From: an uncultured delta proteobacterium
Lineage (GTDB): Bacteria > Desulfobacterota > Desulfobulbia > Desulfobulbales > SURF-16
NCBI GenBank assembly: GCA_963729825.1
Contig: CAVSQR010000056.1
Coordinates: 12,362 to 76,361, forward strand
Direction: 5' to 3'
DNA length: 64,000 bases
In this document: positions 405 through 58,968 of the stretch, piece after piece
How positions within the stretch are numbered: the stretch's first letter is position 1
Layout: the number at the start of each line of letters is the position of its first letter
The notes under the pieces: generated by a model
Told to the model about the DNA's origin: nothing
Seen by the model: the letters and a program-made list of their open reading frames with translations, nothing else
Databases searched by the model: none
Program-made: the position numbers and the translations under genes

Positions 405-503
405 GTTGGCAAAATTAATGTCGTCACCGGATAGTCAGAGACGGCCTAAAGAGCCGTAACGAAATTGAAAAAATGGCCATGTTATTTCGTAACGGCTCCT
501 AAG
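405..503. repeat. Family-1 palindromic intergenic repeat, copy A
   Basis: The core at 451-498 is gagccgtaacgaaat-N18-atttcgtaacggctc, with perfect 15-bp arms. It is preceded by a degenerate head motif, ccgttggcaaa. It creates the spurious ORF start MKKWPCYFVTAPK. Confidence 0.85.
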
Positions 504-551
504 TTGAGAAAAGTAGCAACACCGAGGCGTCCAATGGAGTGGAGAGACAAA

Positions 552-2536
552 ATGAGCGCGTCCGATCAGGAATTTTTCAAGACAAATTTCGCCCTGCTGA
601 AAATACATTACCCCCAGCTGTGGCAAAGGTTTCGGGAAAATCCGCCCCAGCCCACTGGCGAGATAGTGTTTTCGCCAGCGGGCGGCCCCAATCTTTTGGT
701 GCGGAATGCAGACGGCAAGGCCTTTACCTTGCATCAGGAAAATGATCCTGCCGCCGAGATTCCGCAATTCCTTAAGCTGGTCCCCCCTGACGCCACCGGG
801 TTTGTGGTTTTTTTGGGTATGGGTCTGGGCTATGCCCCCCTGGCCTTGCTGCAGGAGCGGCCCAATATCAACCGGTTGGTAATTTTTGAGCTGGATGAAG
901 GAATATTCTGGCAGGCCTTGCAAGCTATGGATCTGGCTGCGCTGATCAAAAATCCCAGGGTGACTTTGCTGGTTGGGGCTCATCCTGATATTGCCAAAAA
1001 TCTTGGCGGTTTCATGGCCGCGCTCACCATGGAGTCGATTTATACCCTGGAACATTTTGCCGTTTTCGGTCTTGATCGGGATGGCTACCGCAAATTGAAG
1101 GATGATTTTTTCCAGTTTGCCAATACCATGAATATCGGCGGCAGTACCGTGACGGCGTACGGGAAAACTTTTGTGGCAAATCGCTTCCGGCAGCTCTCCG
1201 GTATTGGGCATGACTATTTTCTTGATTCGCTCCAGGGCGCCTTTGCCGGGGTTCCCGCCATCCTGGTGGCCGGCGGGCCGTCGCTCAATAAAAATATCCA
1301 TCTTTTACCGCAGGCCAAAGGCCTGGCAGTCATTATCGCGGTGGATGCCGCCATCCCCCCCCTGCTGGTCCAGGGCGTCAAACCGGATTTTGTGGGTTCC
1401 ATCGATATGCAGCCCCTGACCTATGAAAAATATGGCGCTCACGCCGGTGACCTTGCCGAGGTGTCGCTTGTCTGTGCACCTTGGGTTACCCCGAAAGTGT
1501 CCAAATATTTAAATGTGGAACGGGTATTTTGGCTGTTTTCGCAAAACAATATGGAGAAATGGCTGCACAGCCGGTTGGGGGGGGGGTGACCTTTCCCGGA
1601 GCCGGCACCGTGGCCCAGCTCAATCTCTATGCCGCGATTCTTCTGGGGTGTTCGCCGATTATTTTTGTCGGCCAGGATTTTGCCTTCAGCGATGATCGGA
1701 GTCATGCCGAAAATATCGTCTTGTCCGGTCAACAAAAGGTACAGAAAATGCTGGCCGCAAAAAAGGAGTTGCATTATGTCCCCGGCACCCTGGGCGGCAC
1801 CGTGGCCACTGACCGTTCCTTTCTGAGCATGAAAAAAACCGTTGAGGATACCATCCGGTCCAACCCCAATACGTACATCAATGCCACCGAGGGCGGAGCG
1901 CATATCGAAGGCACACGGGTGATGCCCCTGCAGGAGGTGCTGGCCGAATTCTGTCGGCCCGGGTCAACGACGGTCGCCGCGCGAATCACAGAAAAGCTGG
2001 GGCAAACTACGCCGCCCGATATGGCAGCCGTGGTCAAGGAATTCAGGGCAACTCTCCAGCGCGGTCAGGTTCAGTTGAAGTATATCAGCCAGTCCGATGA
2101 ACTGGGCGGCCGGATTCTCGTGGACGTCACCAAGTTGGAGCGCCGGGCCGCTATGTTTACCTGCTTTGATCGGCTGCCCAAGGAGTTGCAAAAGCGGCTG
2201 CGGAAAAACGACGAACTCCATGGGAAGATAGATCGGGATCAGGTCTGGGATCTGTTGCAGGATGTGACCACCGAGGGGCTGCGGGACACGGAGCGGATGA
2301 AGGTGGCAATTGAGCAGCTTGAGGGCGATCCGGCCCGATATCTGCTTTGGCTGCGGAAAAGCCTGGAGCGGTTGCTTGAGGTCAACAAGGTCAGGCGCCG
2401 GGTGCTGACCGATTTTCTTGCGAAAATTTCCCAAACCATTGAGAACTTCGAGTCCGAACAGGCCCTCTTGCGGCAAGACCGGCTCCGCTTTGCAAAGCAG
2501 CCTGGCTCTTGCCCGGCTGTACATGGCAAACGGTGA
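552..2536 (+). CDS. Motility accessory factor (Maf, DUF115/MptE-like) putative flagellin glycosyltransferase, frameshifted at a G10 tract
   Basis: ORFs 465..1589 and 1481..2536 join at the G run: ...LHSRLGGG* continues as ...GGGVTFPGAGTVAQLNLYAAILLGCSPIIFVGQDFAF. DUF115-type motifs are present (ILVAGGPSLNKNI, VIIAVDAAIPPLL). The likely start is ATG 552 (MSASDQEFF), with ATG 534 as an alternative. Confidence 0.75.
1577..1586 (+). repeat. Homopolymeric G10 tract inside maf
   Basis: The sequence is ccggtt-gggggggggg-tgacc. TGA 1587-1589 is read in the upstream frame. G11 or G8 would fuse the two maf ORFs. Confidence 0.95.
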
Positions 2537-3440
2537 TATCCGCCTGGCTCGCCCGGTGCTTGAAGAAATGCTGTCCGATCACCATGACTCGGCGGAAATT
2601 CACTTTTTACTCGGCAAGATCGCTGCCCTGCAGGTTGATTTTGCCGCCGCGGATCGCTTCTTTGCCGAGGCCCAACGCTTGTCTCCCTTGCTGGAGGCGG
2701 AAATTGACGTCTTTCGCCACGAATGCGCCGCCGAGTATCTGACTTTTTACCGGGACAACCTGACGGGCAGAAAAATGTTGCTGAAGGGGCTGCGGTATGA
2801 CTGCCGGCACGAAGGTGTGCGCAAACAGATCATGGCAGCGGTGGCTCAAGACCTGGCCCTGATGTCCGCCGCCCTGGCGCACGTCGATGGCCAGCAAAAT
2901 GACCCTGTCCAGGCCTCCAGGTTTAAGGAAGCCGCCGATCTGGCGCGATTCTGGCACGAAAACCTGCACAGCAACCCCAACCTGGCCGCCTTGCTCACTA
3001 CCCAACAGGCGGCGGCCATCCATTTTGCCCAGGGACAGTTTCTGTTCGGCCAGGGGGATTTCAGCGGCGCCCTGGCCGGTTATCAAGAGGCGGCCGCCCT
3101 GACTCCCCGGGACGCCCTTATCCAGGTGGCCATCTTTGAGGCCGCCTTTAACCTCGGCCGCTTTGATCTTGGAGCCATGGCCCTTACCAGGGCGGTGGAC
3201 CTGGATCACTCCCTGGCCAGACACTGGGAGGAGCTCGGCGACTTGCTCCTGACCTCGCAACAACCCGCCGATGCCCTGGCCGCCTATGAACAGTGTTTCG
3301 CTACGCAGCCGGAACAGTTCCATCTGCTGAAAAAGATCGGCGATTGCTACCTCGCCCTGGAGCAGCTGGAGGCGGCGCGGGAGGCATACCGGTTTTATCA
3401 GCAAAAGGCCCTGGCTGCCGGGACAAATCCTGCGGAATGA
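2523..3440 (+). CDS. Tetratricopeptide-repeat (TPR) protein
   Basis: This is ORF 2418..3440, with repeated A/L/Y-rich helix pairs (ARLYMANGDIRLARPVLEEML, AQGQFLFGQGDFSGALAGYQEAAALTP, IGDCYLALEQLEAAREAYRFY). The start is uncertain: TTG 2418 or ATG 2523, neither with a Shine-Dalgarno sequence. It could be fused to maf through another indel. Confidence 0.6.
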   Translation: MANGDIRLARPVLEEMLSDHHDSAEIHFLLGKIAALQVDFAAADRFFAEAQRLSPLLEAEIDVFRHECAAEYLTFYRDNLTGRKMLLKGLRYDCRHEGVRKQIMAAVAQDLALMSAALAHVDGQQNDPVQASRFKEAADLARFWHENLHSNPNLAALLTTQQAAAIHFAQGQFLFGQGDFSGALAGYQEAAALTPRDALIQVAIFEAAFNLGRFDLGAMALTRAVDLDHSLARHWEELGDLLLTSQQPADALAAYEQCFATQPEQFHLLKKIGDCYLALEQLEAAREAYRFYQQKALAAGTNPAE

Positions 3441-10227: not shown

Positions 10228-11508
10228 ATGGCAAAATTAGTTGCGCCGCATGGTGGTAAAGGTCTTGTATGCGCACTGCTGCATGGCAGTGAGCTGGCTG
10301 CTGAGAAAGATAAAGCCGCTGGTCTGAAAAAAATTCAAGTTACCAGCCGCGCCAAAGGTGACTTGATCATGATGGGTATTGGTGGCTTCAGCCCTCTCAC
10401 AGGTTTCATGACCAAAGCCGACTGGAAAGGCGTTTGCGAGAAAATGCAGCTGGCTGACGGCACCTTCTGGCCCGTACCGATCACCCTTGATATTGACAAG
10501 GCTGATGCCGATGCTATCAAAGTAGGCGAAGAGATCGCGCTTGAGCGTAACAACGAGATCATTGCCACCATGAAGGTCACCGAAAAATATGAGATGACCG
10601 AAGCTGAAAAGAAATTTGAATGCGAGAAAGTTTTCAAGGGCAAAGGCGCAGACAGTGCTGATGACAAATTCTGGACAGTTGCCATGGAAGATCATCCTGG
10701 CGTCCAGATGGTTATGGCTCAGAAAGCAGTCAACATCGCCGGTCCTGTTAAAGTTCTGTCCGAGAGTCAATATCCTGTCGAGTACAAAGGTGTTTATATG
10801 CACCCGGCCGAGGTTCGCGCCTTGTTCGAGGAAAGAGGCTGGGCCAACGTTGCCGCTCTGCAGCTGCGTAACCCGATGCATCGTTCCCACGAGTACCTGG
10901 CCAAGATCGCCATCGAGGTATGTGACGGCGTTCTGATCCATTCACTGATCGGTTCCCTGAAAGCCGGCGATATTCCTGCCGACGTTCGCGTTAAGGCCAT
11001 CAACATCCTGTGTGATAATCACTTTGTAAAAGACAACGTCATCCAGGCCGGTTACCCGATGGATATGCGCTATGCCGGTCCCCGCGAAGCTCTTCTCCAT
11101 GCCACCTTCCGTCAGAACTTCGGCGTCAACAACATGCTGATCGGCCGTGACCATGCCGGCGTTGGTGACTTCTACGGTCTGTTCGAGGCCCAGGAAATTT
11201 TTGAAACCATGCCGAAAACCGGCGATGCAGGCAAAGATCTGCAGTGCAGACCGATGAAAATCGACTGGACCTTCTACTGCTCCAAATGCGATGGCATGGC
11301 TTCTCTGCGCACCTGTCCGCATGACAAAGCAAGCCGCGTTATCCTCTCCGGAACGAAGCTGCGTAAAGCTCTGTCCGAGGGTGCTGAGGTTCCTGATCAT
11401 TTCGGCCGTGAAGAGGTTCTCGTTCTCCTGCGTGCATACTATGAAGGCCTCACCGAGAAGGTTGAGGTCAAGATGCAGAAAGCCGCTTCCGGATCCGCAA
11501 TGAAATAA
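10228..11508 (+). CDS. sat: Sulfate adenylyltransferase (ATP sulfurylase)
   Basis: The conserved motifs [13 protein letters not shown] and [12 protein letters not shown] are present, and the protein is 426 aa. A strong Shine-Dalgarno sequence (aaaggag) precedes it. Confidence 0.95.
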
Positions 11509-12187: not shown

Positions 12188-13288
12188 ATGACAGAGGATC
12201 TGCTGATGAAAATAATTGATGTCGGGTTGGGTAAGCGGTCGTACCCGATCATGGTGGCGGCCGGATTGCTCGGGGAAATCGGTCAGGATTTGCTGCAGCG
12301 GGCGGTGGCCAAGCGTTATGTGGTGATCGCCGATGACCGGGTGGCCGGGCTCTACGGCAAGACGCTGATCGAGTCTTTGACGGGTCAGGGAATCAGCTGT
12401 GACCTGCTTGTTTTTCCCCGCGGTGAAGCCAGCAAGAACATGACAACCATTGCCCGTTTGGCCAGCTCCCTGGCCCAGCTCGGTGTTGATCGCAAGGATT
12501 GCCTGATTGCCCTGGGCGGCGGGGTCACCGGTGATATCACCGGTTTTGTCGCCGCCATCTACATGCGGGGTATTGCCTTTGTCCAGGTGCCGACCACATT
12601 GCTGGCCCAGGTTGACAGCTCGGTGGGAGGCAAGACCGGTGTTGATATTCCTGAAGGCAAGAATCTGGTCGGGGCATTTTATCAGCCGCGCGCCGTTTAT
12701 ATCGACAGTCGGGTTCTCACCTCGCTTCCCCCGGATGAGCTGTTAAACGGCCTGGCGGAGGTGATCAAGTACGGCGTCATCTATGACCGGGATTTTTTTG
12801 ATTTTCTGGCTGCCAACCGGGAGCAGATCCTGCAGCTGCAGCTGCCGGTCATCGAAGAGGTGATTGTCCGCTGCTGTCAGATCAAGGCCGCCGTGGTGGC
12901 TGCGGACGAGAAGGAGGCGGACCTGCGCCGCATCCTTAATTACGGTCATACCCTGGGCCATGCCGTGGAGGCGGCATCGGATTTCTCCATTGCCCATGGC
13001 ATGGCCGTGGCAATGGGCATGGTGGCCGCCAATAAGCTGGCGCAGGGCAAGGCCCTTCTTTTGGCACCGGAGGCGGAACGGATCAGCCAGGTGATTGCCG
13101 GCTTTGGGCTGCCGGTGGCAATTCCGCCGGAGCTCGACCATAACCTGATGAAATCATTTTTAAAGACCGACAAGAAGGCGGTGGCAGGCCGTCCCTTTTT
13201 CGTGCTGCCGACCCGCATCGGCCAGGTGACCATTACCGATGATGTGGCGGAAGAACTGATTGATCAGGCTTTGGTCATGAGGCAGTAG
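12188..13288 (+). CDS. aroB: 3-dehydroquinate synthase
   Basis: The motifs GGGVTGDITGFVAAIYMRGIAFVQVPTTLLAQVDSSVGGKTGV and NYGHTLGHAVE are present. ATG 12206 is a possible alternative start. Confidence 0.9.
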   Translation: MTEDLLMKIIDVGLGKRSYPIMVAAGLLGEIGQDLLQRAVAKRYVVIADDRVAGLYGKTLIESLTGQGISCDLLVFPRGEASKNMTTIARLASSLAQLGVDRKDCLIALGGGVTGDITGFVAAIYMRGIAFVQVPTTLLAQVDSSVGGKTGVDIPEGKNLVGAFYQPRAVYIDSRVLTSLPPDELLNGLAEVIKYGVIYDRDFFDFLAANREQILQLQLPVIEEVIVRCCQIKAAVVAADEKEADLRRILNYGHTLGHAVEAASDFSIAHGMAVAMGMVAANKLAQGKALLLAPEAERISQVIAGFGLPVAIPPELDHNLMKSFLKTDKKAVAGRPFFVLPTRIGQVTITDDVAEELIDQALVMRQ

Positions 13289-13360
13289 GAGAGGCAGAAG
13301 ACGGGGTTCGCAGTTGATGTTTTATCCCTTACTGCCTACTCTGCACTTTTGCCTTCCCAT

Positions 13361-16300
13361 TCACACCGCGCAGCGGAAGCCGATGATGTTTGACCAGGTG
13401 TCAGGTTCCAGCAGACGGGCCGCCATGGTAATGCCTGCTTTGGAGGTCCAGCAGCCGCCCTTGAGCACATAAACAGGGGGCGTGCGGTTGCTGACAGGCC
13501 GGGATGGAGTATGCACCGATGCCGTCCATTCAAAGACGTTGCCCAGCAGATCATAGATGCCAAATGGACTCATGGACGGTTTGCCATGGCGGATAACCGG
13601 GGTGGTGTCGCCGGTAAGCGCTGCTTCAGTATTGGCCAGTTCCCCCCGCCATTCATTTCCCCAGGGAAAGAGAAGGCCAGCCGGGCCACGGGCCGCCGCT
13701 TCCCATTCGTCCTCGCCGGGCAGCCTCTTGCCCGCCCAGGCGGCAAAGGCCAGGGCGTCATGGCGGCTCACCTGCACCACCGGATGGTTCCCCTTGTTTT
13801 CCAGGGAGCTGCCCGGGCCCGCAGGATGACGCCAGTTTGCCCCCTGTGTCTTTCTGTGAACGGGTGCCGCGGTTGATGAAAAAGCACGTTACGGCCGGTA
13901 TCCGGATCGATTCTGTTGCTGATCCGTCCTTCCACCACATTGCCGAAACCGGCCCGCTCGGCATCGGTTTCATAGCCGGTCTCGCGGACAAAAAAATCAA
14001 AAAGATCGTTGGTCACCGGCAGCTGAGCGATGTAAAAACTTTGTAGAAAGATCTTCCGGGTCGGCCGTTCATTGTAAGCCGGCTGATCACGCCCTGTCAG
14101 ATAGTAGCCGGCGGGTATCTTGATAAATTTCGGCATGAACCGCTCAAGGATCTGGGCGATGTAATCATCATGGCTTTCCGTCAGGGTTTCCGGCGGGGAG
14201 GCCAGGGCCTCATCCGGTTCAATATAGTGACTGAGGTCCAGCGGGCGGGCTGCATCTCGCTGCCCAGCATCTGTTGCCCCAATTTCGCCAACCGTGGTGG
14301 TTTCCTCTTCATCAATAATCTCTGTTTCCTGTTCCAGGATCTCGGCCTCATCGAGCAGCTCGACCTCTTCCTGGTCGAGGAGTTCCTGGGCAGCCGGCCC
14401 GTCTTCAGCGCCGCCGGGCAGCTCAGCCCCTGTGTTCGTTCCCGTGCCCGCCAGCCCGCCTCCGGCCAGGCCGTCAGCCGGTCCGCCAATTATGTCGTCG
14501 GCAATCTCTGTTTCCTGTTCCAGGATCTCGGCCTCATCGAGCAGCTCAAACTCTTCATCTGCAAGCCATTCATCAATAGCCGGTCCGCTTCAGGCCGCCG
14601 GCAGCTCAGCCCCTGCGTCCGTTCCCGCGCCCGCCAACTCGCCCCCGGCCAGACCGTCAGCCGGTCCGCCAATTATGTCATCGGCAATCTCTGTTTCCTG
14701 TTCCAGGACCTCGGCCTCATCGAGCAGCTCGACCTCTTCCTGGTCGAGGAGTTCCAGGGCAGCCGGTCCGGCTTCAGCGCCGCCCGGCAGCTCAGCCCCT
14801 GTGTCCGTTCCCGTGCCCGCCAGCCCGCCCCCGGCCAGGCCGTCAGCCGGTCCGCCAATTATGTCACCAGCAATCTCGGTTTCCTGTTCCAGGACCTCGG
14901 CCTCATCGAGCAGGTCAAACTCTTCATCGGCAAGCCATTCATCAATAGCCGGCCCGTCTTCAGCTGCCGCCGGCCCCCTCAGCTCCTGCGTCCGTTCCCG
15001 TGCCCGCCAGCCCGCTCCCGGCCAGGCCGTCATCCGGTCCGCCAATGATGTCATCGACGATCTCGGTTTCCTGTTCCAGGATCTCGGCCTCATCAAGCAG
15101 CTCGACCTCTTCCTGGTCGAGGAGTTCCAGGGCAGCCGGTCCGTCTTCAGCGCCGCCGGCCGCCTCAGCCCCTGTGTCCGTTCCCGTGCCCGCCAGCCCG
15201 CCCCCGGCCAGGCCGTCATCCGGTCCGCCAATGATGTCATCGACAATTTCGGTTTCCTGTTCCAGGACCTCGGCCTCATCGAGCAGCTCGACCTCTTCCT
15301 GGTCGAGGAGTTCCAGGGCAGCCGGTCCGTCTTCAGCGCCGCCGGGCAGCCTCATCCCCTGCGTCGGTTCCCGTGCCGGCCAGCCCGCCGTCAGCCGGAG
15401 CGCTTATGGTCTCACCGGCAATTTCGGTTTCCTGTTCCAGGACCTCGGCCTCATCGAGCAGGTCAAACTCTTCATCGGCAAGCCATTCATCAATAGCCGG
15501 CCCGTCTTCAGCGCCGCCGGCCCCTTCAGCCCCTGTGTCCGTTCCCGTGCCCGCCAGCCCGCCCCCGGCCAGGCCGTCAGCCGGTCCGCCAATGATGTCA
15601 TCGGCGATTTCGGTTTCCTGTTCCAGGACCTCGGCCTCATCGAGCAGCTCAAACTCTTCATCGGCAAGCCATTCATCAATAGCCGGTCCGTCTTCAGTGC
15701 CGCCGGCCCCCTCAGCCCCTGTGTCCGTTCCCGTGCCCGCCAACTCGCTCCCGGCCAGGCCGTCATCCGGTCCGCCAATGATGTCATCGACGATTTCTGT
15801 TTCCTGTTCCAGGATCTCGGCCTCATCGAGCAGCTCGACCTCTTCCTGGTCGAGGAGTTCCAGGGGAGCAGGCCCAGCTTCAGCGCCGCCAGCCCCTTCA
15901 GCCCCTGTGTCCGTTCCCGCGCCGGCCAGCCCGTCCCCGGCCAGAATCGCAGGAACTGCGCTCCCCCCCATCTTCAGCCGTCACCGTTTCTGCAACAGCT
16001 GCCCCGTCCGCCTTACTGCCTGCGGCAGCATCCCCGATTCCCGTGCCGGGGGCCAAGTGCTGCGGAGCATCACCCATGCCGGCGGCCCTGGCGATCATCT
16101 CTCTGGTCTTATCAAGCTCCTTGAGCAGCGAGGGCGGCTTCTTTCGGGCCGTCGCCCTGCATGACGCTGTCAAGAATGCCGCGCATCAGGGTGAGAATGT
16201 CCTTGGGGTCGAGGGCGCTGCTCAGTCCCAGCTTCTGCAAAAGGTCGTCTTTATGTTCATCGGAGATGGTGAAAACGTTATCGCGGCCGATGATCAGGCC

Positions 16301-16582
16301 TTCCGGATTTTTGCCCTGCTGGGCCAGTTTTTTCAGGTCCTTGTTTATGGAGGATTTGAGGCTGCTCAGGTTTTTCTTCTTCTGGTGAATAACTGCAGGA
16401 TCATCAACCTCCCACAGTTGCCTGATGAGATCCTCGGCGGGGATGGCGTCGATCTCCGCCAGTCTTTCGTCAGTGGGGCAATAGGAGTGGATGAGGCTGA
16501 TGAGGCGGCCCTTGAGGGTGGCGGGATTGGGCCGGAGGTTGGCGATGGCTGCAGAAATGCCCTGATGTGTGATTAATGCCAT
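13361..16582 (-). pseudogene. Large protein disrupted by multiple frameshifts and one in-frame stop: unknown N-terminal domain, nine acidic tandem repeats and a C-terminal FGE-sulfatase (SUMF1/EgtB/PvdO family) domain
   Basis: The minus-strand ORFs 16112..16582, 15898..16173, 15333..15971, 14960..15355, 14590..15279, 13768..14136 and 13361..13780 chain into one protein. FGE motifs are present: QGANWRHPAGPGSS, HPVVQVSRHDALAFAAWAGKRLPGEDEWEAAARG and FGIYDLLGNVFEWTA. The breaks are at T3 16142-16144, C7 15963-15969, about 15350, about 14965, TGA 14590-14592, and one somewhere in 13771-13888. Confidence 0.75.
14318..15943 (-). repeat. Tandem array of nine units, periods 186/183/186/187/186/175/186/186 nt
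   Basis: Unit landmarks (c/ttc[tg]gtttcctgttccagga) fall at 14320, 14506, 14689, 14875, 15062, 15248, 15423, 15609 and 15795. On the minus strand each unit encodes ...LLDEAEVLEQETEI.DDIIGGP.DGLAGGGLAGTGTDTGAE..GG.EDGPA.... Confidence 0.9.
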
Positions 16583-16721
16583 GCTATGTCCCGCTGCCTG
16601 GAATGATCTGCGGCGCTTGTTCGGTTAGCTGGAGTTGCCGGGAGATGCCGGTACGGCAAAGCGATGTTTTCGCGATTTTTCTCCTTTCAGCATACAGAAG
16701 GGCAGGGGAAAAATCTATATT

Positions 16722-16750
16722 TTGCTTTTCTAACGGATAGTCGCTACAAT
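16722..16750 (+). promoter_or_regulatory. Candidate sigma-70 promoter of the topoisomerase-like gene
   Basis: The sequence is TTGCTT-N17-TACAAT, about 50 nt upstream of ATG 16802. Confidence 0.4.
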
Positions 16751-16801
16751 AAATTGCGTTCCCATTGTTATCATTACTTTTTCCGGCAGGAGCCGCATGA
16801 A

Positions 16802-19537
16802 ATGACATCTTTGGTAATAGTCGAATCAGAGGCAAAGGCAAAGGCTCTCGCTGAGCAGTCCGGTGGCGCGCATGAAACATTGCTGCTGCGCTCAGCACCC
16901 ATGAAGGTCGGCCATCAGCCCAACGCCGCCAGATTATACACCGGTGAAACAGGATTTCAGTTTGTGCCCACGGAAGCGGAAAGGGGCTTTGCCAGGGACC
17001 TGCTGACCAATCTGCATAAGGATATTTATGTGGCCCTGGAGAGTGATCAGCAGGGAGAGTACTGGAGCTGGATGCTGAGCAAATTCGTTTTTGCCGCTTC
17101 CAAGGGGGAAAAAGGGATCAGGCGGGTCCATGTCTCAGGTTTTGGGGAGGAGGAGCTGGCGGAGGCATTCCGGCTGGTTGAGCCGGTGCAGGACAGTGCC
17201 GCCGCGGCATTTTATATCCGCTCCCTTTTTGACAGCAGTCTGTTACGCCATCTGCAGCGTTTGCTCGGTACCGTGCACGGTCCGGGCGGGCTGCCGCTGA
17301 ATTTTGCCGCACTCACCGCCCTTTTCCTGCTGGAAGAAAGGGAAGCGGAAGTCGATGCCTTTGCCGCTCCGGCGAAATGGCAGATTGCCGCCCGGCTGTC
17401 AACCCCGGCCGGGGCTGTCAAGGTAAGGCTGCAGGAGGCCTATGGAATAACGGATGATGGCTTTTTCCGAGATCAGGGCGAGGTGAAAAAGGCCCTGGCC
17501 CTTTTTGCCGGGCGGCCCCTGGCGGTCAAAGATGTGGCGGGGTCTGATTTTACCATGGAACCGCCCATGCCGTACCGTCTCGCCGAGTTGCTGCATGACG
17601 GTTATGTCCATCTCGGCATGGGGCCGGCAAAGGTGCTGCAGGCCCTGCAGAGGTTCCATGCCGGTCTCCCGCTTGATGGCAAACAGACCGGCCTCATTTC
17701 CGCGCCTTTTGCCGTGATCCCCTTGCACCATCAGGTCACCTTGTCCCGCATCAGAAAAGAGGTGGCAACCATTTTTGGCAGCGGGGAACTGATTGAACGG
17801 CAGCCAGCCGGCCATGTCATTCTTCCCCTGCTTCCCGGCCTTACCGGCGATCATCTGCAGGATATCCTGTCCGCCGATGAGCGGCAGCTGTATGATCTGA
17901 TCCGGCAGCGGGCCCTGGCCAGTCAGATGCCCGAGGCTGTCGGCCGCAATCTGTTGCTGGAATGTACTGCGGGCGGCTGCCTGTTCCAGGGGCGGACCCC
18001 CTTGCTGACGGAAAAGGGTTTTCTCAAGGCATTTGCCAAAGGCTATGATCCTTACCTGTTGCCGGACTGTCCCCTGCAGGATTTACAGGCCGGCCGGGAA
18101 CTCACCGTGGAGCAGGTCATCCCGGAACAGTGCACCGGCGTCACGGCGGAATACTATACCTTTGATTCTCTCTGTGAGGATCTCGCCGAGTTTTCCCTGC
18201 CCCTGGAGTCGGTTCTGATCCGTATCCTGCAGGAGATGCTTGATAAGAAATACCTTGCCCTTGATGCCAGAGGCGGCTTGCATATCGAGGGCAATACCGG
18301 CAGGGTGGTGGCCACCCTGAACCGGGCCTTCCCGGCCATGAAGGGCATCAGCCTTTCGGCCTATTTTGAGCAGACGGTGGGTGAGGTGGTCAGCGGCCGC
18401 AAATCCCTTGACTTCGCGCTGAAACAGTTTGAGCAGAACTTCGTCATGCATGGGGTGCCCCTGGTCAGAATCCAGGTACCCAGGGCAGTCCCGGTCCGGG
18501 AGAGCAAATCAAAGAACATCATTAAAAGCCTTGAGCCGGAGAGTCGCACCCCAGGGCCGACGGCGGCAGCACAGCAGGACCCGGCAGCGAAAGCTGCCGC
18601 GGAAACAGGAGCCCCGGCCATGGAAGCTGGGGAGGGGATGGTTGAATCACCCGGGCAGGCGGAGCCGATGACGGCGGATGCGGCGCTGGCTGCCGACCAG
18701 CCGCGGGAAGAGGCAGAGGATATCGCCAAGGGGGAAATCAGCGCGGCGCAGGAGATGACCGGCAATGAAGACGTCCCGGTCCGGGAGGAGGTTGCCGGGC
18801 ATGCTGATATGGCCGCTCGGGCAAACGCCGAAACCTCTGATCGCTTGAACGTTGAAGGGGAAACGGTTGCCGCGCCGGCTGTGGAAGCTGTGGCAAGCGA
18901 CATGCCGGAGATCCAGGAGGCTGCGCCGGAGACTGTTTTTGAGGAGCCGCTGCCGGCTGCGGAAGAGAGCGCGCAGAAGGTTGCCGGGCGTATGCGGGCA
19001 GATGAGGCCCTTGCTGCGCTGCCACCGGCTGAGGCCCAGCCGGGGCGATCCTGCCCGGATTGCGGCAGACCGCTCAGGTTGAAAAGTGATCGTTTCGGCA
19101 GGTACTGGGTCTGTTCGGACTATCCGGCCTGCCGTCACGCCGAATCCTGTGAGAGCGGGCCGCAGAAAATGGATCTGCCCTGTCCGCTCTGCGGAAGGCA
19201 ATCCCTTGTCGTCAAACGGACCCCCACCGGCAAAAAGCTCTATGTCTGCCCCGGAGAGGGGTGTGAATTCATGGCCTGGTCCCGGCCTCATGCCGTAACC
19301 TGTCCGGGCTGCGGTTCCCCCTTTCTGGTGGAGAAAAAGACGGCAGCGGGCGGGACGGTGCTCCTGTGTCCCCGGGCCGGCTGCAGTTACCGGCAGGCCC
19401 TTGGCGGTGAGCAGATGGAGGGCGCGGGCGCCGAAGCTGTGCAGCCTGCCAGGAAAAAGATCCTGGTGCGCCGCCCAACAGGAAGCAGCGGCGGTCCCGG
19501 CAGAAAAAAGGTGCTGGTCCGCAGGAAAAAAGGCTAG
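16802..19537 (+). CDS. Type IA DNA topoisomerase (TopA) homologue lacking the catalytic Tyr/Arg, with an acidic linker, three C4 zinc ribbons and a basic tail
   Basis: The Toprim start is MTSLVIVESEAKAKAL, with aggag 8 nt upstream. Homology runs along the whole length (ERQLYDLIRQRALASQM, PPMPYRLAELL). The position of GYITYMRTDS reads GLISAPFAVI. The zinc ribbons are CPDCGRPL..CSDYPAC, CPLCGRQS..CPGEGC and CPGCGSPF..CPRAGC. Confidence 0.75.
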   Translation: MTSLVIVESEAKAKALAEQSGGAHETLLLRSAPMKVGHQPNAARLYTGETGFQFVPTEAERGFARDLLTNLHKDIYVALESDQQGEYWSWMLSKFVFAASKGEKGIRRVHVSGFGEEELAEAFRLVEPVQDSAAAAFYIRSLFDSSLLRHLQRLLGTVHGPGGLPLNFAALTALFLLEEREAEVDAFAAPAKWQIAARLSTPAGAVKVRLQEAYGITDDGFFRDQGEVKKALALFAGRPLAVKDVAGSDFTMEPPMPYRLAELLHDGYVHLGMGPAKVLQALQRFHAGLPLDGKQTGLISAPFAVIPLHHQVTLSRIRKEVATIFGSGELIERQPAGHVILPLLPGLTGDHLQDILSADERQLYDLIRQRALASQMPEAVGRNLLLECTAGGCLFQGRTPLLTEKGFLKAFAKGYDPYLLPDCPLQDLQAGRELTVEQVIPEQCTGVTAEYYTFDSLCEDLAEFSLPLESVLIRILQEMLDKKYLALDARGGLHIEGNTGRVVATLNRAFPAMKGISLSAYFEQTVGEVVSGRKSLDFALKQFEQNFVMHGVPLVRIQVPRAVPVRESKSKNIIKSLEPESRTPGPTAAAQQDPAAKAAAETGAPAMEAGEGMVESPGQAEPMTADAALAADQPREEAEDIAKGEISAAQEMTGNEDVPVREEVAGHADMAARANAETSDRLNVEGETVAAPAVEAVASDMPEIQEAAPETVFEEPLPAAEESAQKVAGRMRADEALAALPPAEAQPGRSCPDCGRPLRLKSDRFGRYWVCSDYPACRHAESCESGPQKMDLPCPLCGRQSLVVKRTPTGKKLYVCPGEGCEFMAWSRPHAVTCPGCGSPFLVEKKTAAGGTVLLCPRAGCSYRQALGGEQMEGAGAEAVQPARKKILVRRPTGSSGGPGRKKVLVRRKKG

Positions 19538-21584: not shown

Positions 21585-21800
21585 GTTGGGTTGAGCGGCT
21601 CTCTGATTTCCGAGTCTTTCTTTTATCACCCTATACCCGCCAGCCAAAACTCTCAACCCAAAAGGCTAAGCCGTTGTAATAAAATACTATCGCCGTCCGG
21701 TTGTCATCCGGCCCGGACCTGCACAATATGACTTGAAAAGATATCGCATTATGAGTTTAATCCGGGAAAAATTACCCCTAAAGCTACAGAAGGACGCGCC

Positions 21801-22810
21801 ATGACCAATTTAACCGCCAGGACAGTCGGCTTCAAGCCCAGGGAGCGGAATGTATTTTTTCATATCCTCACCGCCTGCAACCTCTCCTGCCGCCACTGTT
21901 ACATCAATCCGGCACAGCATGGCACCGCCACCCTCTCCCTGGAAACCATGGAGAACTGGCTGCGTCTTTTTTTGGATCCGGCCAGGGAGACCAACCTGAT
22001 TTTTTTAGGCGGCGAGCCTACCCTGCACCCGGATCTCGCCGCAGGCATCAAAACGGCCAGACAGCTGGGCTACCGGAGCGTGACCGTGGACAGCAACGGC
22101 TTTTTATTCCATGACCTGCTGGAGCACATCATCCCCGGATGAGGCGGTCATCAGCTTCAGCCTGGACGGCCCGACAGCCGAAGATCAATGATCCCATCCG
22201 CGGCCAAGGGGTGTTTGCCGTCTGCACCGCCAATATCAGCAAGGCGGTGGCCATGGGGTTTGACGTCAGCCTTATCTACACGGTGAGCCGGATGAATATC
22301 GAGCACCTGCACCTGATGCCGGCGCTGCTCAAAGACCTCGGCGTCAGACGTTTTTTTATCCAGGTCATCGGCATCAGAGGCAAGTCAGCCGGCTTCACCA
22401 GGGACAATCTGCAGCTCACCCCGGAAGAATGGCTGTCCGTGATTCCCGCGGTGGCGCAAAAAGCCGCCGCCCTGGGTATCCATGTCATTTTCCCCAAGGT
22501 CTTCCTGGCTCCAGGGGAAGAATTCGCCTGCGCCGGGCGGGTGGCGGAAAACTACTTTATCTTTCCCAACGGCCGGGTTTACCAGTGCCCTCTGTGCGAG
22601 GATTTCCCGGTGCACGCCTTTACCATCGAAGACAACCGGCTGGTCAAAAATACGGGACTGACCGAAGACCGGTTCTTCACCCTTGATATCCCCGAGGGCT
22701 GCGTGATGAACAAACTGCTGCAGCCGGGCAACATCCGCTATGATGACCAGGGAAACCCTCTTTACCGCATTTCCTGCTGTCTTTTGAAACAGGAGATGGG
22801 AAACGACTGA
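21801..22810 (+). CDS. Radical SAM protein, frameshifted (two indels within 22133-22190)
   Basis: The CxxxCxxC motif appears in FHILTACNLSCRHCYINP. ORFs 21801..22142 and 22139..22810 join through a third frame, ...IIPDEAVISFSLDGPTAE..INDPIRGQG. There is a C4 run at 22133-22136. Confidence 0.7.
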
Positions 22811-38591: not shown

Positions 38592-39599
38592 ATGAACGAA
38601 AATCCGCCCCCTGCGCTGATTAATTATTTTCCGGTCAGCAAGCATTGCCTGATGAAGATGTACGGGGAGATCACCTTTGATCTGTATACGATCCCCCGGA
38701 GCCAGCAGCAAGGGCAGGAACCGGTGCTGCTGGTGCATAAAAATTCCATGCTGACCAATGTCAGGGATCTCATTGCGGCCAGCGGTTTTGAGAACTTCTA
38801 CATCCGGAAAGAGGATCAGGGCAAACTCCATCATCTCATAGAAAATTTCATCGGCATGATGATCGATGATCCCCTCATCCCTCTCAAGGAAAAATCAAAC
38901 CTTATCTACAACTGTGCCGCCAATGTCCTGAAGGATATTTTCTCCGATCCCAGAAGCGGGGACAATTTAAAGCGGACGGAAAACATTACCGGCAATATCA
39001 TCAATTTTGCCTTAAGCGACCAGGCATCCATTCCCAGTCTGCTGCAACTCAGCTCCCATGATTATTACACCTTCACCCACTGCCTCAATGTGGCTGTTTT
39101 CAGCATAGGCCTGTGGCAGGCCATTTACCCGGCCAGACAGGATTGTCTGCGGGAATTTGCCCTGGGCTGCATTCTGCATGATATCGGCAAGAGCCGGATT
39201 GACGATGCCATCCTCAATAAGCCGGGTAAACTGACCGAGGACGAGTTCGCGGTGATGAAAAAGCATCCGCAATACGGCTACAAGCTGATGATTGGGGCAG
39301 TCCCGGCCATCTCCCTTGATGTCATTCTCCATCACCATGAAAAACATGACGGCAAAGGTTATCCCCGCGGGCTGCAGGGAGACAGGATTTCCGACTTTGC
39401 CAAAATCGCAGCCATTGCCGATGTCTATGATGCGCTGACCACGAAAAGATCTTACGCAGACGCCAGAGACCCCTTCAAGGCAGTGCTGACCATGAAGGAG
39501 GAGATGGTGGGCCATTTTGAACAGGATAAATTCATTTCCTTTATCTATCTGCTACGCGGCAGAAGTTCATCCCCACCGGTGCACAAGGAACAGGCTTAA
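38592..39599 (+). CDS. HD-GYP domain phosphodiesterase
   Basis: The HD motif appears in LGCILHDIGKSRI and the GYP motif in HHEKHDGKGYPRGL. Confidence 0.85.
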   Translation: MNENPPPALINYFPVSKHCLMKMYGEITFDLYTIPRSQQQGQEPVLLVHKNSMLTNVRDLIAASGFENFYIRKEDQGKLHHLIENFIGMMIDDPLIPLKEKSNLIYNCAANVLKDIFSDPRSGDNLKRTENITGNIINFALSDQASIPSLLQLSSHDYYTFTHCLNVAVFSIGLWQAIYPARQDCLREFALGCILHDIGKSRIDDAILNKPGKLTEDEFAVMKKHPQYGYKLMIGAVPAISLDVILHHHEKHDGKGYPRGLQGDRISDFAKIAAIADVYDALTTKRSYADARDPFKAVLTMKEEMVGHFEQDKFISFIYLLRGRSSSPPVHKEQA

Positions 39600-40878
39600 C
39601 AGGGGCAGATAGGTAATCAGGGCGAGGGCGGCCATCTGCAGAATGATGAACGGCAGTGTGGCCTTATACACCGTTATCATCGGCTTTTCAAAGCGATAGC
39701 TGGCCAGAAACAGATCAAGGCCCACCGGCGGGGTGGAGTAGCCGATCTGCAGATTGGCCAGAAAAATGATGCCCAGATGAATGAGATCCACCCCATAGCC
39801 CTGGGCGATCGGCACGATGAGCGGCACCACCAGCACCAGGGCCGAGAAGATATCGAGCATGCAGCCGACAATCAGCAGGAAGATGTTCAAGAGCAGCAGA
39901 AAGGTGTATTTGCTGCTGATATAATGCTGGATGATCTCAAAAAGGCGCATGGGCACCTCCCGGTCCACCAGGAAGTTGGTGGAGGCCATGGAGGCGGCCA
40001 GAATCACCAGGATGCCGCCGAAGAACATCATGCTCTGCACCATGATGGCAGGCAGGCGGGAAAGAGTGATGTCGCGATAGATAAAGACCTCCACGACCAG
40101 CACATAGAGGGCCGTTACCGCCGCCGCCTCCCCGGCCACAAAAAATCCACCGTAAATTCCTCCCAGGATAATCACCGGCAGGGGCAGCTCCCAGGCTGCC
40201 TCTTTGATCCCGGCCGTTGACCTCGGCCCGGGAGGGGGCAGCGCCGCGCCTGCGAACCGGCGGGCTTTTTTGTATACTGTAGCCGCCGATCAGGGTAAGC
40301 ATCACCAGTCCCGGCACGATGCCGGCCAGAAAGAGCTGATCTATCCGCACCTCGGCAATAACCCCGTAGAGGATCAGCGGCAGACTGGGAGGAAACAGCA
40401 GGCCAAGACTGCCGGATGTGGTGATGAGCCCCAGGGAAAACTTTTCGGTATACTGATCCTTGACCAGGGCTGGGTACAGGAGGCCTCCCAGGGCAAAAAT
40501 CGTCACGCCGGACGCCCCGGTAAAGGCGGTAAAGACGGCGCACACCACCAGGGCCACCACTGCCAGCCCGCCCGGCATCCAACCGAGCAGCAGCCGGGAG
40601 AGGTTGAGCATCCGCCGGGGCGTCCCGCTTGCAGACAGCAGGGTACCGGCAAAAATAAAGAGCGGCAGCGAGACCAGCAGCGGGGTATCCGCCAGACGGG
40701 ACATCTCGATAATGACCACGGAAATATCAATGCCCACACTGTAAAAGGAGAGCAGGGCCAGCGCCGCGATGATGATAAACAGCGGCGTGCCAAGCAGCGC
40801 CATGAGCAAGGTAAAATATCTGCAGAGAATCACGGCGGGGAGACCATCAGGATGGGCGGGCGGAAGATTTGCCGGCAA
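39567..40878 (-). CDS. dctM: TRAP transporter large permease, frameshifted at T6 40266-40271
   Basis: ORFs 39937..40878 and 39567..40175 are joined by a -1 correction in the coding-strand A6 run: ...LIGGYSIQKK|ARRFAG...AWELPLPVIILGGIYGGFFVAGEAAAVTALY. The N-terminal start is uncertain. Confidence 0.8.
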
Positions 40879-41362
40879 TTGCCAGGAGATCCGCCACGCC
40901 GGCTGAGAAAAAACGGAAAGTCATCAGACCGAAGGCCAGCGGGAAAACGAGATTCCAGGCCCAGGAAGGAATGGAGAGCAGGGAGGTGCCGCCGAACTCG
41001 GCTTCATTGCGGACAAAGCTGACGGCCGCCCAGGTCAGGGCAGCAGACACCAGGGTGGAAAAAAGATGAATCAGCAGCTTAAGCCATGGCTTCATGCCGG
41101 CCGGCACCAGATAGGAGACCAGATCAAGGCCGATATGTTTGCCCATCCGGGTGGCCACGGCCGCCCCGAACATGCCGGACCACAGCACCAGATAACGGAG
41201 CAGCGGGTCGGCCCAGAGCAGGCCCCCGGAAAAAACATCCCGCAGGGCAATCTGCAGACAGGCCAGCAAGATCATGCCGGCCAGCAGCAGACAGAGAAAG
41301 GTCTCCTCCAGCCGCTGCCCAAAGCGGCGCAGACCGGCCACCCATTTGCCTAAAGCATTCAT
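40847..41362 (-). CDS. dctQ: TRAP transporter small permease
   Basis: The protein is 171 aa with four TM segments and lies between dctP and dctM. Confidence 0.8.
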   Translation of the reverse strand: MNALGKWVAGLRRFGQRLEETFLCLLLAGMILLACLQIALRDVFSGGLLWADPLLRYLVLWSGMFGAAVATRMGKHIGLDLVSYLVPAGMKPWLKLLIHLFSTLVSAALTWAAVSFVRNEAEFGGTSLLSIPSWAWNLVFPLAFGLMTFRFFSAGVADLLAIAGKSSARPS

Positions 41363-45610: not shown

Positions 45611-45619
45611 GAGAAAATC

Positions 45620-46343
45620 ATGGAACATCCAATACTGTTTATTTCAGTGATTCTGCAGGCGCTGGGGCTCCCAGTTCCCCATACACTGGTCGGCGAGACG
45701 CTGCTCGCCAAACTCGTGTCCCCGCATCTGACCTATACCTGGCTGGTAATGGCCTTTTTGATTATCATGCCAAAGCTTACCCTGGGGAAACTGGAACTGG
45801 TACCCAATGGCAAACAGAATTTCTGGGAAGTATGCGTCGGCGGTCTGGAAACTTACATGACCGACCAGATGGGCCCCGAGCGGGCGGCCATGATGTTTCC
45901 GATGATTGCCACCTTTGCCTTTTACATTCTGGTGGCAAATCTGATGGGTCTTATGCCGGGTTTCATGTCTCCCACCTCCAATCTGAATATCACCCTCGGC
46001 ATGACCCTCATTGTCTGGGTAACCCATCATATTCTCGGACTCAAGTATCATGGCATCAAATACATCAAACACTTCACCGGTCCCATGGTGGCGGCTTATC
46101 CCGCTGATGCTGCCCATCGAGATTATCAGTAACCTGGCCCGTATTCTCTCCCTGTCCATCAGGCTTTTCGGTAACATCATGGCTAAAGAGACCCTGCTCG
46201 CCATTCTCTTCATGCTGTACGGCGCCTTTTTCGGCCCGCTGCCGATTCTCTGCCTCGGTGTTCTGGTTTCCGTTGTGCAGACCATGGTTTTTGTTCTGCT
46301 GTCCATTCTTTACTGCCAGGGCGCCATGGAGCATGCTCATTAA
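45620..46343 (+). CDS. atpB: F0F1 ATP synthase subunit a, frameshifted near 46084-46092
   Basis: ORF 45620..46132 ends ...IKHFTGP. ORF 46050..46343 continues WWRLIPLMLPIEIISNLARILSLSIRLFGNIMAKE, which includes the conserved Arg. Confidence 0.9.
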
Positions 46344-56878: not shown

Positions 56879-57688
56879 ATGCTTTTTTCACTTTCGCTCA
56901 TCGGATATTATTTATCCACCACCACCTATATTATCTTTTTCGTCACCCAGAAAAAGAAAATCCGGTCGGCGGCCCGCTGTCTGCTCTTCGGGGCCGGGGT
57001 GCTGCACACGGTGACTATCATCAGCCGTTATTTCCTGGCAGGCCACACACCGCTCACCACCCACTTTGACACGGTTTCCTTTTTTGCCTGGTCCATGACC
57101 TGGGCCTTTCTCTCCTTCCGCTGGCGTTATCAGGTGAAAAATTTCGGCACCTTTGTCTCCCTGGTCATTTCGGCCCTCATGACCATCGGCGCCCTCTCGT
57201 CCCAGACCATCGCGGAATTGCCGCCCGCCCTGCAAAGCGCCTGGCTGCCGGTTCACGCCAGCATCGCCATCATTGCCGACGGCTTTATGGCCATGGGCTT
57301 CTGCAGCGGCCTGATGTATCTCCTGCAGGAGCGGGAACTGAAAAAAAAGAGATTCGGCGTCTTTTACAGCCGCCTGCCTTCCCTGGAGGCCCTGGATAAT
57401 CTCATCCAGCACTGCCTGACCGTGGGCTTTCCGCTGCTGACGCTGGGCATCATCACCGGCTCCTTATGGGCCAAACAGGCATGGGGGGCATACTGGCACT
57501 GGGATCCAAAGGAGACCTGGTCGCTGATCACCTGGTTTCTTTACGCCGCCATGCTGCATCAGCGCTTTATCGCGGGATGGCGCGGAAAAAGGGCCGCCAT
57601 TCTGGCCATCATCGGTTTCATTGCCGTTTTGTTCACCCTGTGGGGTGTGACCTTTCTGCTGCCGGGAGTCCACTCATATGTCCGTTGA
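56879..57688 (+). CDS. Cytochrome c assembly (CcsA/HemX-like) membrane protein
   Basis: The Trp-rich motif is WAKQAWGAYWHWDPKETWSLITW, and there are eight predicted TM segments. It is adjacent to hemA. Confidence 0.75.
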   Translation: MLFSLSLIGYYLSTTTYIIFFVTQKKKIRSAARCLLFGAGVLHTVTIISRYFLAGHTPLTTHFDTVSFFAWSMTWAFLSFRWRYQVKNFGTFVSLVISALMTIGALSSQTIAELPPALQSAWLPVHASIAIIADGFMAMGFCSGLMYLLQERELKKKRFGVFYSRLPSLEALDNLIQHCLTVGFPLLTLGIITGSLWAKQAWGAYWHWDPKETWSLITWFLYAAMLHQRFIAGWRGKRAAILAIIGFIAVLFTLWGVTFLLPGVHSYVR

Positions 57689-58968
57689 TTCCATTTTGAT
57701 TCTGGGAGTAAACCACAAGACCGCACCTGTGGAGGTTCGCGAGCAGCTCGCCTTTACCAGTGACCCGGAAAGGCCATTCAAAAAACTGAGAGAAATCCCC
57801 GGCTGTTCGGAATTCTGTTTTCTGTCAACCTGCAACAGGGTCGAGGTGATCTTTACCAGCCCCCACCAGACGGAAACCATCCGCTCCATCAAAAAATTTC
57901 TTTTTGCCACCAGCAATATCAAGGAAGATGATATTGACAACTTCATTTACCTGCACCGCGGCGCGGACGCCATCACCCATCTTTACCGCGTGGCGGCAAG
58001 CCTCGATTCCATGGTGGTCGGTGAACCGCAGATCCTGGGCCAGCTCAAGGACGCCTACCGCGATTCCGCCGATCAGGGAATGCACCGGCGTCATCTTAAA
58101 CCGTCTCCTGCACAAGGCGTTTTCCGTGGCCAAACGCATCCGTACCGAAACAAATATCGGCGGCAGCGCGGTTTCCATCAGTTATGCCGCCGTGGAGCTG
58201 GCCAAGAAAATTTTCGGTAATCTCGAGGGCAAAAAGGTGCTGCTGGTGGGAGCCGGCGAGATGGCGGAGCTTGCCGCCGAACATCTCGTCAACCAGGGCA
58301 TTTCCGAAGTGATTGTCGCCAACCGCACCCTGGAGCGGGCCGTCAATCTGGCCAAACGCTTCAACGGCAAGGCGGTGGGACTGGCTGAATTGCACGCCCA
58401 GATGGAGCTTGTTGATATCATGGTCAGCTCGACCGGCGCAAGCGGCCTGATCCTGCACCAGGAAGACGTCAAACCCATCATGAAACAGCGGAAGAACCGC
58501 CCGCTCTTTCTCATTGATATAGCGGTGCCGCGGGATCTTGATCCCAAGCTCAACGACCTGGATAACATCTATCTCTACGATGTTGACGATCTCAGCCAGG
58601 TGGTTGAGGGGAACAAGGCTGAAAGGGAACAGGAGGCGCTGCGGGCGGAACGTATCGTCACCGAGGAGACGCTGAAATTTCTTCAGTGGATTGAAGACAT
58701 GCAGCTCACCCCCACCATTGCCGCCCTGCGCCGGAAAGCCGACACCATCGCCCAGGCCGAACTTGCCAAGACCATCTCTCATTGCGGCAACCTGGGCGCC
58801 AGGGACATCAAGTCCATCGAGAAAATGGCAGGGGCAATTATCAACAAGATCCTGCATGATCCGATTCTCTTTCTCAAAGAGGGCCATAGCCACGAGGACA
58901 AACGTCTCAAACTCGATTTCACGAGAAAAATTTTCGGCCTGGACCTTGAACCGGAAAAAGAGGAATAA
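57678..58968 (+). CDS. hemA: Glutamyl-tRNA reductase, frameshifted near 58074-58084
   Basis: The N-terminus is MSVDSILILGVNHKTAPVEVREQLAF and the active-site region is LSTCNRVE. ORF 57904..58968 continues TGVILNRLLHKAFSVAKRIRTETNIG...LLVGAGEMAEL. Confidence 0.9.

Follow-up and report, generated by a model that had tools for sequence, protein, structure and literature searches.

An FGE-fold gene with a frameshifted acidic repeat array and a topoisomerase-like neighbour in an uncultured member of the Desulfobulbales

Introduction

The formylglycine-generating enzyme (FGE, SUMF1) needs two cysteines, copper and O2 for catalysis (bioRxiv 10.1101/2021.05.21.445229), and its fold is also used without catalysis, as in the FGS domains, which serve as non-catalytic sensors (PMC8195603), and in the Tsi3 immunity proteins of type VI secretion systems (bioRxiv 10.1101/2021.05.21.445229). 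The gene described here codes for a protein with such a fold and lies on the minus strand at positions 13361-16582 of a stretch of 64,000 nucleotides (nt), below called the window, from an uncultured delta proteobacterium of the Desulfobulbales (contig CAVSQR010000056.1 of assembly GCA_963729825.1, positions 12,362 to 76,361). As assembled, the gene is broken in seven places, and a first-pass annotation, made from the letters alone, had offered a decaying pseudogene, a hard-to-assemble repeat, or both as explanations, and had found the architecture unfamiliar. Judged by sequence comparison, the gene is a member of an undescribed, widespread and vertically inherited protein family, which among the loci checked occurs in Thermodesulfobacteriota only. 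It is probably intact in the organism, and the lesions would then be single-base consensus errors of the assembly, in and around a GC-rich repeat array; a probability of roughly 0.6 is assigned to this reading.

Like FGE, the encoded protein has a full-length PF03781 domain with the core motifs of the fold, and like pFGE (SUMF2), it lacks both copper-binding cysteines. Unlike FGE and pFGE, it has no signal peptide-like N-terminus, and it differs from FGE also by an unrelated N-terminal domain, by a polyacidic linker of up to 1450 amino acids (aa) in the family, and by its hosts, as FGE chemistry needs O2 and the family is found in Thermodesulfobacteriota, groups that are known as anaerobes. 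With the FGS sensors, the variable proteins of diversity-generating retroelements (DGRs) and Tsi3 the protein shares an FGE or C-type-lectin-like fold without the catalytic residues of FGE, EgtB and PvdO and, presumably, the binding of macromolecules. In contrast to these groups, however, the gene has neither a STAND NTPase nor an effector, an adaptor domain or a reverse transcriptase nearby, the domain is strongly conserved, and the gene has a stable chromosomal synteny by aroB and sat. The sulfoxide (selenoxide) synthases EgtB, OvoA and SenA have an FGE-like C-terminal domain as well, but the protein of the window has no N-terminal DinB_2 domain, which would carry the iron-binding His triad, and scores only 79 bits with the SenA model (cut-off 420) and 81.5 bits with the EgtB model TIGR03440 (cut-off 360); since the DinB domain is missing in the Pfam search and the EgtB model is not reached, an identity as EgtB or OvoA was rejected.

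A three-part protein family of the Thermodesulfobacteriota

A three-frame translation of the minus strand between 13300 and 16700 reveals a single frame path (1>2>0>1>2>(TGA)>2>0>1) that begins with the ATG at 16582 and ends with the stop codon at 13361-13363, and joining the pieces yields a repaired gene of 1074 codons, in line with the earlier description of seven minus-strand fragments that chain into a three-part gene of about 1070 codons. The layout rests on this chain of frames and on the intact orthologues P0001, P0002, P0003, P0004 and P0182. The protein begins with a conserved N-terminal domain (aa 1-125; 16208-16582), which is followed by two predicted helices, one of them including LLKELDKTRE, and by the start of the acidic region (15945-16207; orthologue alignment, and helices 126-167 in the AlphaFold2 (AF2) model of P0002). 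The tandem array of acidic repeats (14317-15944) then leads to a segment that stands out by its conservation in the family consensus (RPLDLSHYIEPDEALASPPETL..YIAQILERF; 14137-14316) and finally to an FGE-sulfatase domain (PF03781) without the catalytic cysteine pair, as seen by alignment with human FGE (13361-14136, including the stop codon).

With the repaired protein as query, three-part proteins of 643-953 aa with 61-90% identity were found that are intact and come from Desulfobulbaceae and from Thermodesulfobacteriota metagenome-assembled genomes (MAGs). The architecture is therefore not the one-off that it had appeared to be: it belongs to a conserved family, and the proposed check of related genomes indeed uncovered intact orthologues in the same gene order. 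This order (PLD-HHH, TPR-methyltransferase, topoisomerase-like gene, FGE-like gene, aroB, DUF2582, sat, flaG-fliT-fliS-fliD-flagellin) is common to the window and to the loci L001, L002, L003 and L084. DNA identity to the window is 92% in L001 and 95.7% in a further locus, L085, and orthologues that share this neighbourhood and have DNA identities of 92-96% are intact.

The N-terminal open reading frame (ORF) has matches in 246 representative clusters, of which 229 reach E<=1e-10, and the domain defines a family of at least this latter number of protein clusters. The match is invariably at the N-terminus (residues 1-150) of proteins of 100-1725 aa, and the ORF contains the family motif KRKNLSSLKSS..NPEG..IGRDNVF. 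PF03781 is present in 44 of 52 sampled family members; of the eight without it, at least six have fewer than 350 aa and seem to be truncated. When one genome per species was scanned, 141 carriers were identified, and 80 loci were retrieved for the counts of taxonomy and neighbourhood. All 80 come from Thermodesulfobacteriota or ‘Deltaproteobacteria’, namely from Desulfobulbia, Desulfurivibrionaceae, Smithella/Syntrophales and Desulfobacterales. Both the gene and its topoisomerase-like neighbour are also found in Hydrosulfovibrio ferrireducens CB1MN (L039), whose listing as a strain rather than as a MAG suggests that it is cultured. The largest member found in a complete genome has 1840 aa (L072, 7992-13514, on the Smithellaceae chromosome OY820932.1). 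At NCBI, the orthologues are listed under the name ‘SUMF1/EgtB/PvdO family nonheme iron enzyme’, and a literature search returned no paper that joins ‘FGE-sulfatase’ with Desulfobulbaceae or with a topoisomerase.

The lesions of the gene

The lesion sites, all read on the minus strand, were refined against the orthologue DNA of L001, L003, L084 and L085. The first lesion is a frameshift at a CCC (16132-16134), which is +1 relative to L001 and -2 relative to L003 and L084; the +1 shift had been recognised before, but it had been placed about 10 nt away, at a T3 (16142-16144). The protein P0164, which is encoded in L085, is in frame across this site. The second lesion (15962-15969) has G7 and A where L001 and L085 have G8 and AA, and thus reads as two adjacent 1-nt deletions that are equivalent to +1; the homopolymer run of seven at 15963-15969 had been correctly named as a shift site.

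Within the array, the spacing of anchors from unit to unit (186, 186, 175, 186, 187, 186, 183 and 186 nt) locates three lesions at unit junctions. One extra base lies within 15341-15351 at the junction of units 3 and 4, close to the expected position of about 15350, and is followed by a TGA at 15333-15335; unit 3 has an additional in-frame deletion of 12 nt. An extra A at 14965 (GGC[A]GCTGA; lesion 14960-14965), again where a +1 shift had been expected, is followed by a TGA at 14960-14962. The fifth lesion consists of three separate 1-nt deletions within 14586-14599, which shorten the spacing to 183 instead of 186 nt and leave the frame unchanged in sum, but create the TGA at 14590-14592 exactly as it had been deduced before. 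In the FGE-like part, where a single shift somewhere within 13771-13888 had been assumed, there are two +1 insertions instead: a C at 13878 (TTTTT[C]ATC), which is absent from L001, L003 and L084, and, 22 nt downstream, one base within 13853-13856.

Every frameshift moves the frame in the same direction, although inserted and missing bases are mixed, and the lesions are clustered on a very small scale, two being 22 nt apart, three lying within 14 nt and two being adjacent. Three lesions lie beyond the array, at distances of 190-450 nt from it, where the sequence is unique.

Consensus errors, inactivation or recoding

Indel errors are certainly present in the contig, because atpB and hemA are also frameshifted, and it is not credible that a free-living anaerobe has lost ATP synthase subunit a or glutamyl-tRNA reductase. 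In atpB (ATP synthase subunit a; 45611-46340, plus strand), one frameshift near 46080 splits the ATP-synt_A domain into 2-123 and 123-216, and in hemA (glutamyl-tRNA reductase; 57651-58965, plus strand), one frameshift within 57850-58217 splits GlutR_N. The gene itself does not look relaxed either. The ratio of non-synonymous to synonymous substitution rates (dN/dS) between the window and intact orthologues is 0.15-0.25 in the C-terminal and 0.22-0.45 in the N-terminal part, which is the range that is also found between intact orthologues. On the branch that is specific for the window, 1398 nt of unique sequence carry 4 synonymous and 3 non-synonymous substitutions versus 3 frameshifting indels, and the decay of bacterial pseudogenes is known to involve far more substitutions than indels, with a tendency toward deletions.

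The contig of L085 (contig_100812), the naming style of which presumably points to a long-read assembler, carries other frameshifts than the window in this array and is read through in frame at the sites of lesions 1 and 2. Also the array of L001 contains 0% indels, as compared to 2% in the window. A local collapse of consensus quality around a repeat of strain-variable copy number is a plausible cause of such a pattern, but a hard-to-assemble repeat alone is an insufficient explanation in view of the three lesions outside of the array. GC content is not sufficient as a cause either, since a high GC content is a feature of the gene, which is in the top decile, but not of the other frameshift sites. 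From these comparisons we infer, rather than observe directly, that the lesions are errors.

Some points weigh against consensus errors and at the same time speak for a genuine recent pseudogene, that is, for a gene that is dispensable in this lineage and has acquired real frameshifts, possibly over a background of assembly errors. The window has a background of 0.099 frameshifts per kb, by which 0.32 events would be expected in the 3.2 kb of the gene, and there are 7 disruptive events (Poisson P 5e-8). The lesion density is thus 20-30 times that of the window, and since the excess persists in the unique N- and C-terminal parts alone (P 5e-4), a uniform error model does not account for it. Eleven genes on the flanks, about 14 kb in total, match their orthologues over the full length and in a single frame, which bears out the first impression that the gene is far more lesion-dense than its flanks. 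The disabling lesions are absent from the orthologues, and several of them are at short homopolymers (CCC, G7), which are natural slippage sites. The gene is also probably dispensable, and a real inactivation is therefore plausible. Nevertheless, a pseudogene is considered the less likely explanation, and a rather doubtful one: dN/dS is not elevated and equals that of pairs of intact genes, only 7 substitutions unique to the window accompany the 3 frameshifting indels of the unique sequence, the lesions form tight clusters with all shifts in one direction, and the same kind of lesion is present in atpB and hemA.

A third explanation is that the gene is a phase-variable contingency gene, switched by slippage in a G-tract or in the repeat, or that it is expressed by programmed +1 frameshifting at the TGA-terminated junctions. 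There is indeed a G7/G8 tract inside the gene, a maf-like gene of the window is shifted exactly at a G10, all shifts of the gene are in the +1 direction, and three of them are directly before a TGA. Yet the seven broken places are beyond repair by one switch, the G tract is not conserved (G5 in L003 and none in L084), the codons in the P site ahead of the TGAs (CGC, AGC and GCC) cannot re-pair in the +1 frame, and the intact relatives have no need of recoding, which together makes this explanation very improbable. The fragments might also be a number of separate small genes, or repeat DNA that is non-coding and open by chance in several frames, but this idea can practically be dismissed, because the fragments are collinear end to end with single intact proteins of relatives and the acidic frame is the only one that is conserved across the family, even if two minus-strand frames and also plus-strand frames are open across the repeat, with ORFs of up to 400 aa.

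Consensus errors in a normally intact gene thus remain the preferred reading, and the signal of a heavily disrupted gene is mainly a flag for data quality; apparent pseudogenes in this contig should not be taken at face value.

Outside the gene, at least six frameshifts are found in the window, four of six being in the +1 direction. Besides those in atpB and hemA, one within 39940-40289 splits the single Pfam domain of dctM (39570-40920, minus strand), and a radical-SAM gene (21732-22807, plus strand) has a probable frameshift, with a Pfam domain that is truncated at the end of the ORF. A Maf/MptE-like gene for flagellin modification (450-3437, plus strand) is split into three ORFs by two shifts, the first of which is exactly at the G10 tract at 1577-1586. 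This tract could be a homopolymer sequencing error or phase-variable; maf genes of Campylobacter have phase-variable tracts. In L085, the repeat array jumps to an unrelated and very GC-rich sequence near 10790, which may be a misassembly or an insertion.

The FGE-like domain

The repaired C-terminus matches PF03781 at E 6.2e-51 with 173.9 bits (cut-off 23.3) and covers profile positions 3-254 of 255. The domain is thus as complete as had been stated before, with the qualification that this holds for the FGE fold and not for the activity. Among proteins of solved structure, human FGE (140 bits, E 9e-40) and pFGE (133 bits) are closest to it. The copper-binding residues C336 and C341 of human FGE (KGGSYMCHRSYC) align to KGGCWTSKAGIT, with a serine and a gap at the cysteine positions, and a CxxxxC is absent from the last 60 residues in 96 of 97 two-domain members of the family. 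The structural core motifs, HPVVxVS, RLPxExEWE, GNVxEWT and GFRC, are nearly invariant in the family, and the domain of the window has about 94% aa identity to those of L001 and L003 (18-19 of 317 residues differ), at a dN/dS of about 0.2. Because the two copper-binding cysteines are missing, the domain would be a binding module and not a formylglycine-generating oxidase.

Among the genes within about 10 kb, no sulfatase is present in the window, L001, L003 or L084, and a bona fide FGE was rejected for lack of the cysteine pair and of a nearby sulfatase. Neither a sulfatase nor a kinase, which had been suggested as partners, was found; the conserved neighbour is the topoisomerase-like gene. 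None of the NCBIfam equivalogs EgtB, SenA, PvdO, GldK/J and OvoA came near its cut-off. A DGR variable protein was rejected as well, as the C-terminal domain is conserved and not hypervariable and as there is no reverse transcriptase among the neighbours, and so was a known anti-phage defence system, as PADLOC gave no match for P0001 or for the partner.

The acidic linker and the N-terminal domain

The tandem array has a period of 186 nt (62 aa) and 8.8 copies with 83% matches and 2% indels, as determined by Tandem Repeats Finder, and consists of two alternating unit types, ‘...PAIDEWLADEEFELLDEAE...’ and ‘...PAALELLDQEEVELLDEAE...’. In the window, aspartate and glutamate make up 30% of the linker residues. 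The net charge of the linker is -181, and that of the repaired protein, -178, comes entirely from it. In 97 two-domain members of the family the linker has 48-1451 aa, with median fractions of 0.33 for D+E and 0.04 for K+R. In the full-length AF2 model of P0002, the N-terminal and FGE-like domains have predicted local distance difference test (pLDDT) values above 90 and are joined by about 185 residues with pLDDT values of about 30-38, which predicts disorder for the acidic repeats. The array differs between close relatives: L001 has 6.8 copies of a 186-nt unit, L084 has 7.1 copies of a 72-nt unit, and in L003 no array was detected. Both the unit and the number of copies thus change rapidly in the evolution of the linker.

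Plus-strand ORFs of 263-400 aa (14170-16164) are open across the array, and so is an alternate minus-strand frame with a basic ‘RPRSWNRKPK’ sequence. These ORFs are by-products of the repeat composition and not conserved genes.

The N-terminal domain is helical with one beta-hairpin; its AF2 model (pLDDT 88, predicted template modelling score 0.79) has six helices, the hairpin and a final helix. That the domain and the repeat could not be assigned from the sequence alone agrees with the outcome of the searches: the N-terminal 206 aa and the repeat have no match in Pfam and NCBIfam, a profile search of the PDB with a family alignment (A2) found nothing for the domain, and Foldseek gave no hit below E 0.5 in the PDB and BFVD, with only weak winged-helix-like hints. 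When the members of this alignment were scanned one by one, 14 of 32 had sub-threshold Pfam matches to PF08967/ENCP4 (best E 0.002; cut-off 31 bits), which can be taken as a lead only, as an encapsulin-like protein turned up neither in the profile search of the PDB nor among the PDB matches listed by Foldseek.

The topoisomerase-like partner

Upstream of the FGE-like gene and divergent from it, the window encodes a protein that resembles type IA topoisomerases according to Pfam and to an alignment with TopA structures (16802-19537, plus strand). With bacterial topoisomerase I (TopA) it shares a Toprim-like start, the type IA core and Top1-type zinc ribbons, to which a basic tail (charge +12) is added. 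Of the Toprim domain there is a remnant, with a Toprim-like E and a DxD-like motif retained. In contrast to TopA, the partner has no active-site tyrosine and reaches only 113 bits with the topA model TIGR01051, far below the cut-off of 456. The GLITYMRTD of TopA is replaced by GLISAPF, GLITAFLPP or ALISSLYP in 45 of the 45 listed sequences, 49 loci covering this segment. Because of the replaced tyrosine motif, the partner is, by its sequence, regarded as a homologue of type IA topoisomerases that is catalytically dead and has DNA-binding zinc ribbons.

A homologue of the partner is directly upstream of the FGE-like gene in all 80 retrieved loci; in 75 of these the two genes are divergent, and in 5 they point in the same direction. 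Fifty loci, mainly of Desulfobulbia-type MAGs, have the full-length homologue, whereas the other 30, including Smithella/Syntrophales and Desulfobacterales MAGs, have a short form that, as a further difference to TopA, retains only the region homologous to aa 428-560, the zinc ribbons and the basic tail. In L072, the partner gene encodes only 401 aa with the conserved middle region and the zinc ribbons, and in L085 the topoisomerase-like gene is truncated to 622 aa. As the two genes stay together in different orders, even where their orientation or the architecture of the partner has changed, they would seem to be functionally coupled. The conserved adjacency in a vertically inherited block could in part reflect synteny and not function, which counts against a coupling, but this interpretation is weakened by the changes of orientation and the truncation of the partner in distant orders.

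Between the divergent genes, a stretch of about 120 nt next to the partner start (16680-16801; alignment A3) is almost invariant in eight relatives, in which the coding DNA differs by 5-20%. The relatives in this alignment include L003-L007, L084 and L085, and a core is detectable out to L008-L012. The stretch probably serves the divergent pair as promoter and leader, and the true start of the partner is probably at 16802 and not at an upstream ATG at 16664. On the plus strand, the stretch contains a plausible TTGCTT-N17-TACAAT promoter for the topoisomerase-like gene. A minus-strand ORF at 16584-16898 (MSFHAAPAGKSNDNNGNAIYCSDYPLEKQNIDF...) spans the conserved element and overlaps the start of the topoisomerase-like gene, and the orthologue P0005 is annotated as starting within this ORF. 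The extension is probably not coding, since its variation is not biased toward third codon positions. An Rfam search of 13200-17000 gave zero family matches.

Proposed function

The protein is most likely cytoplasmic and non-enzymatic, with two folded domains. Its FGE-like domain may bind a conserved ligand or peptide, and the disordered polyanionic linker may be a spacer, or it may act as a DNA-like competitor for the basic, zinc-ribbon DNA-binding end of the partner, so that the FGE-like protein and the pseudo-topoisomerase would act together on DNA or the nucleoid. It is a tentative and rather speculative idea that the pair constitutes an undescribed two-protein system, so far restricted to Thermodesulfobacteriota, in which the linker could for example be a DNA mimic that gates the pseudo-topoisomerase upon ligand binding, with tandem repeats that evolve rapidly in length and sequence.

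The family to which the gene belongs is unnamed but conserved, and its N-terminal domain is absent from Pfam, NCBIfam and the PDB. It is strictly paired with a homologue of type IA topoisomerases that appears to be dead, and this across Desulfobulbia, Syntrophales and Desulfobacterales. The pairing offers a testable entry to the function of a protein that is now mislabelled in databases as a ‘SUMF1/EgtB/PvdO family nonheme iron enzyme’.

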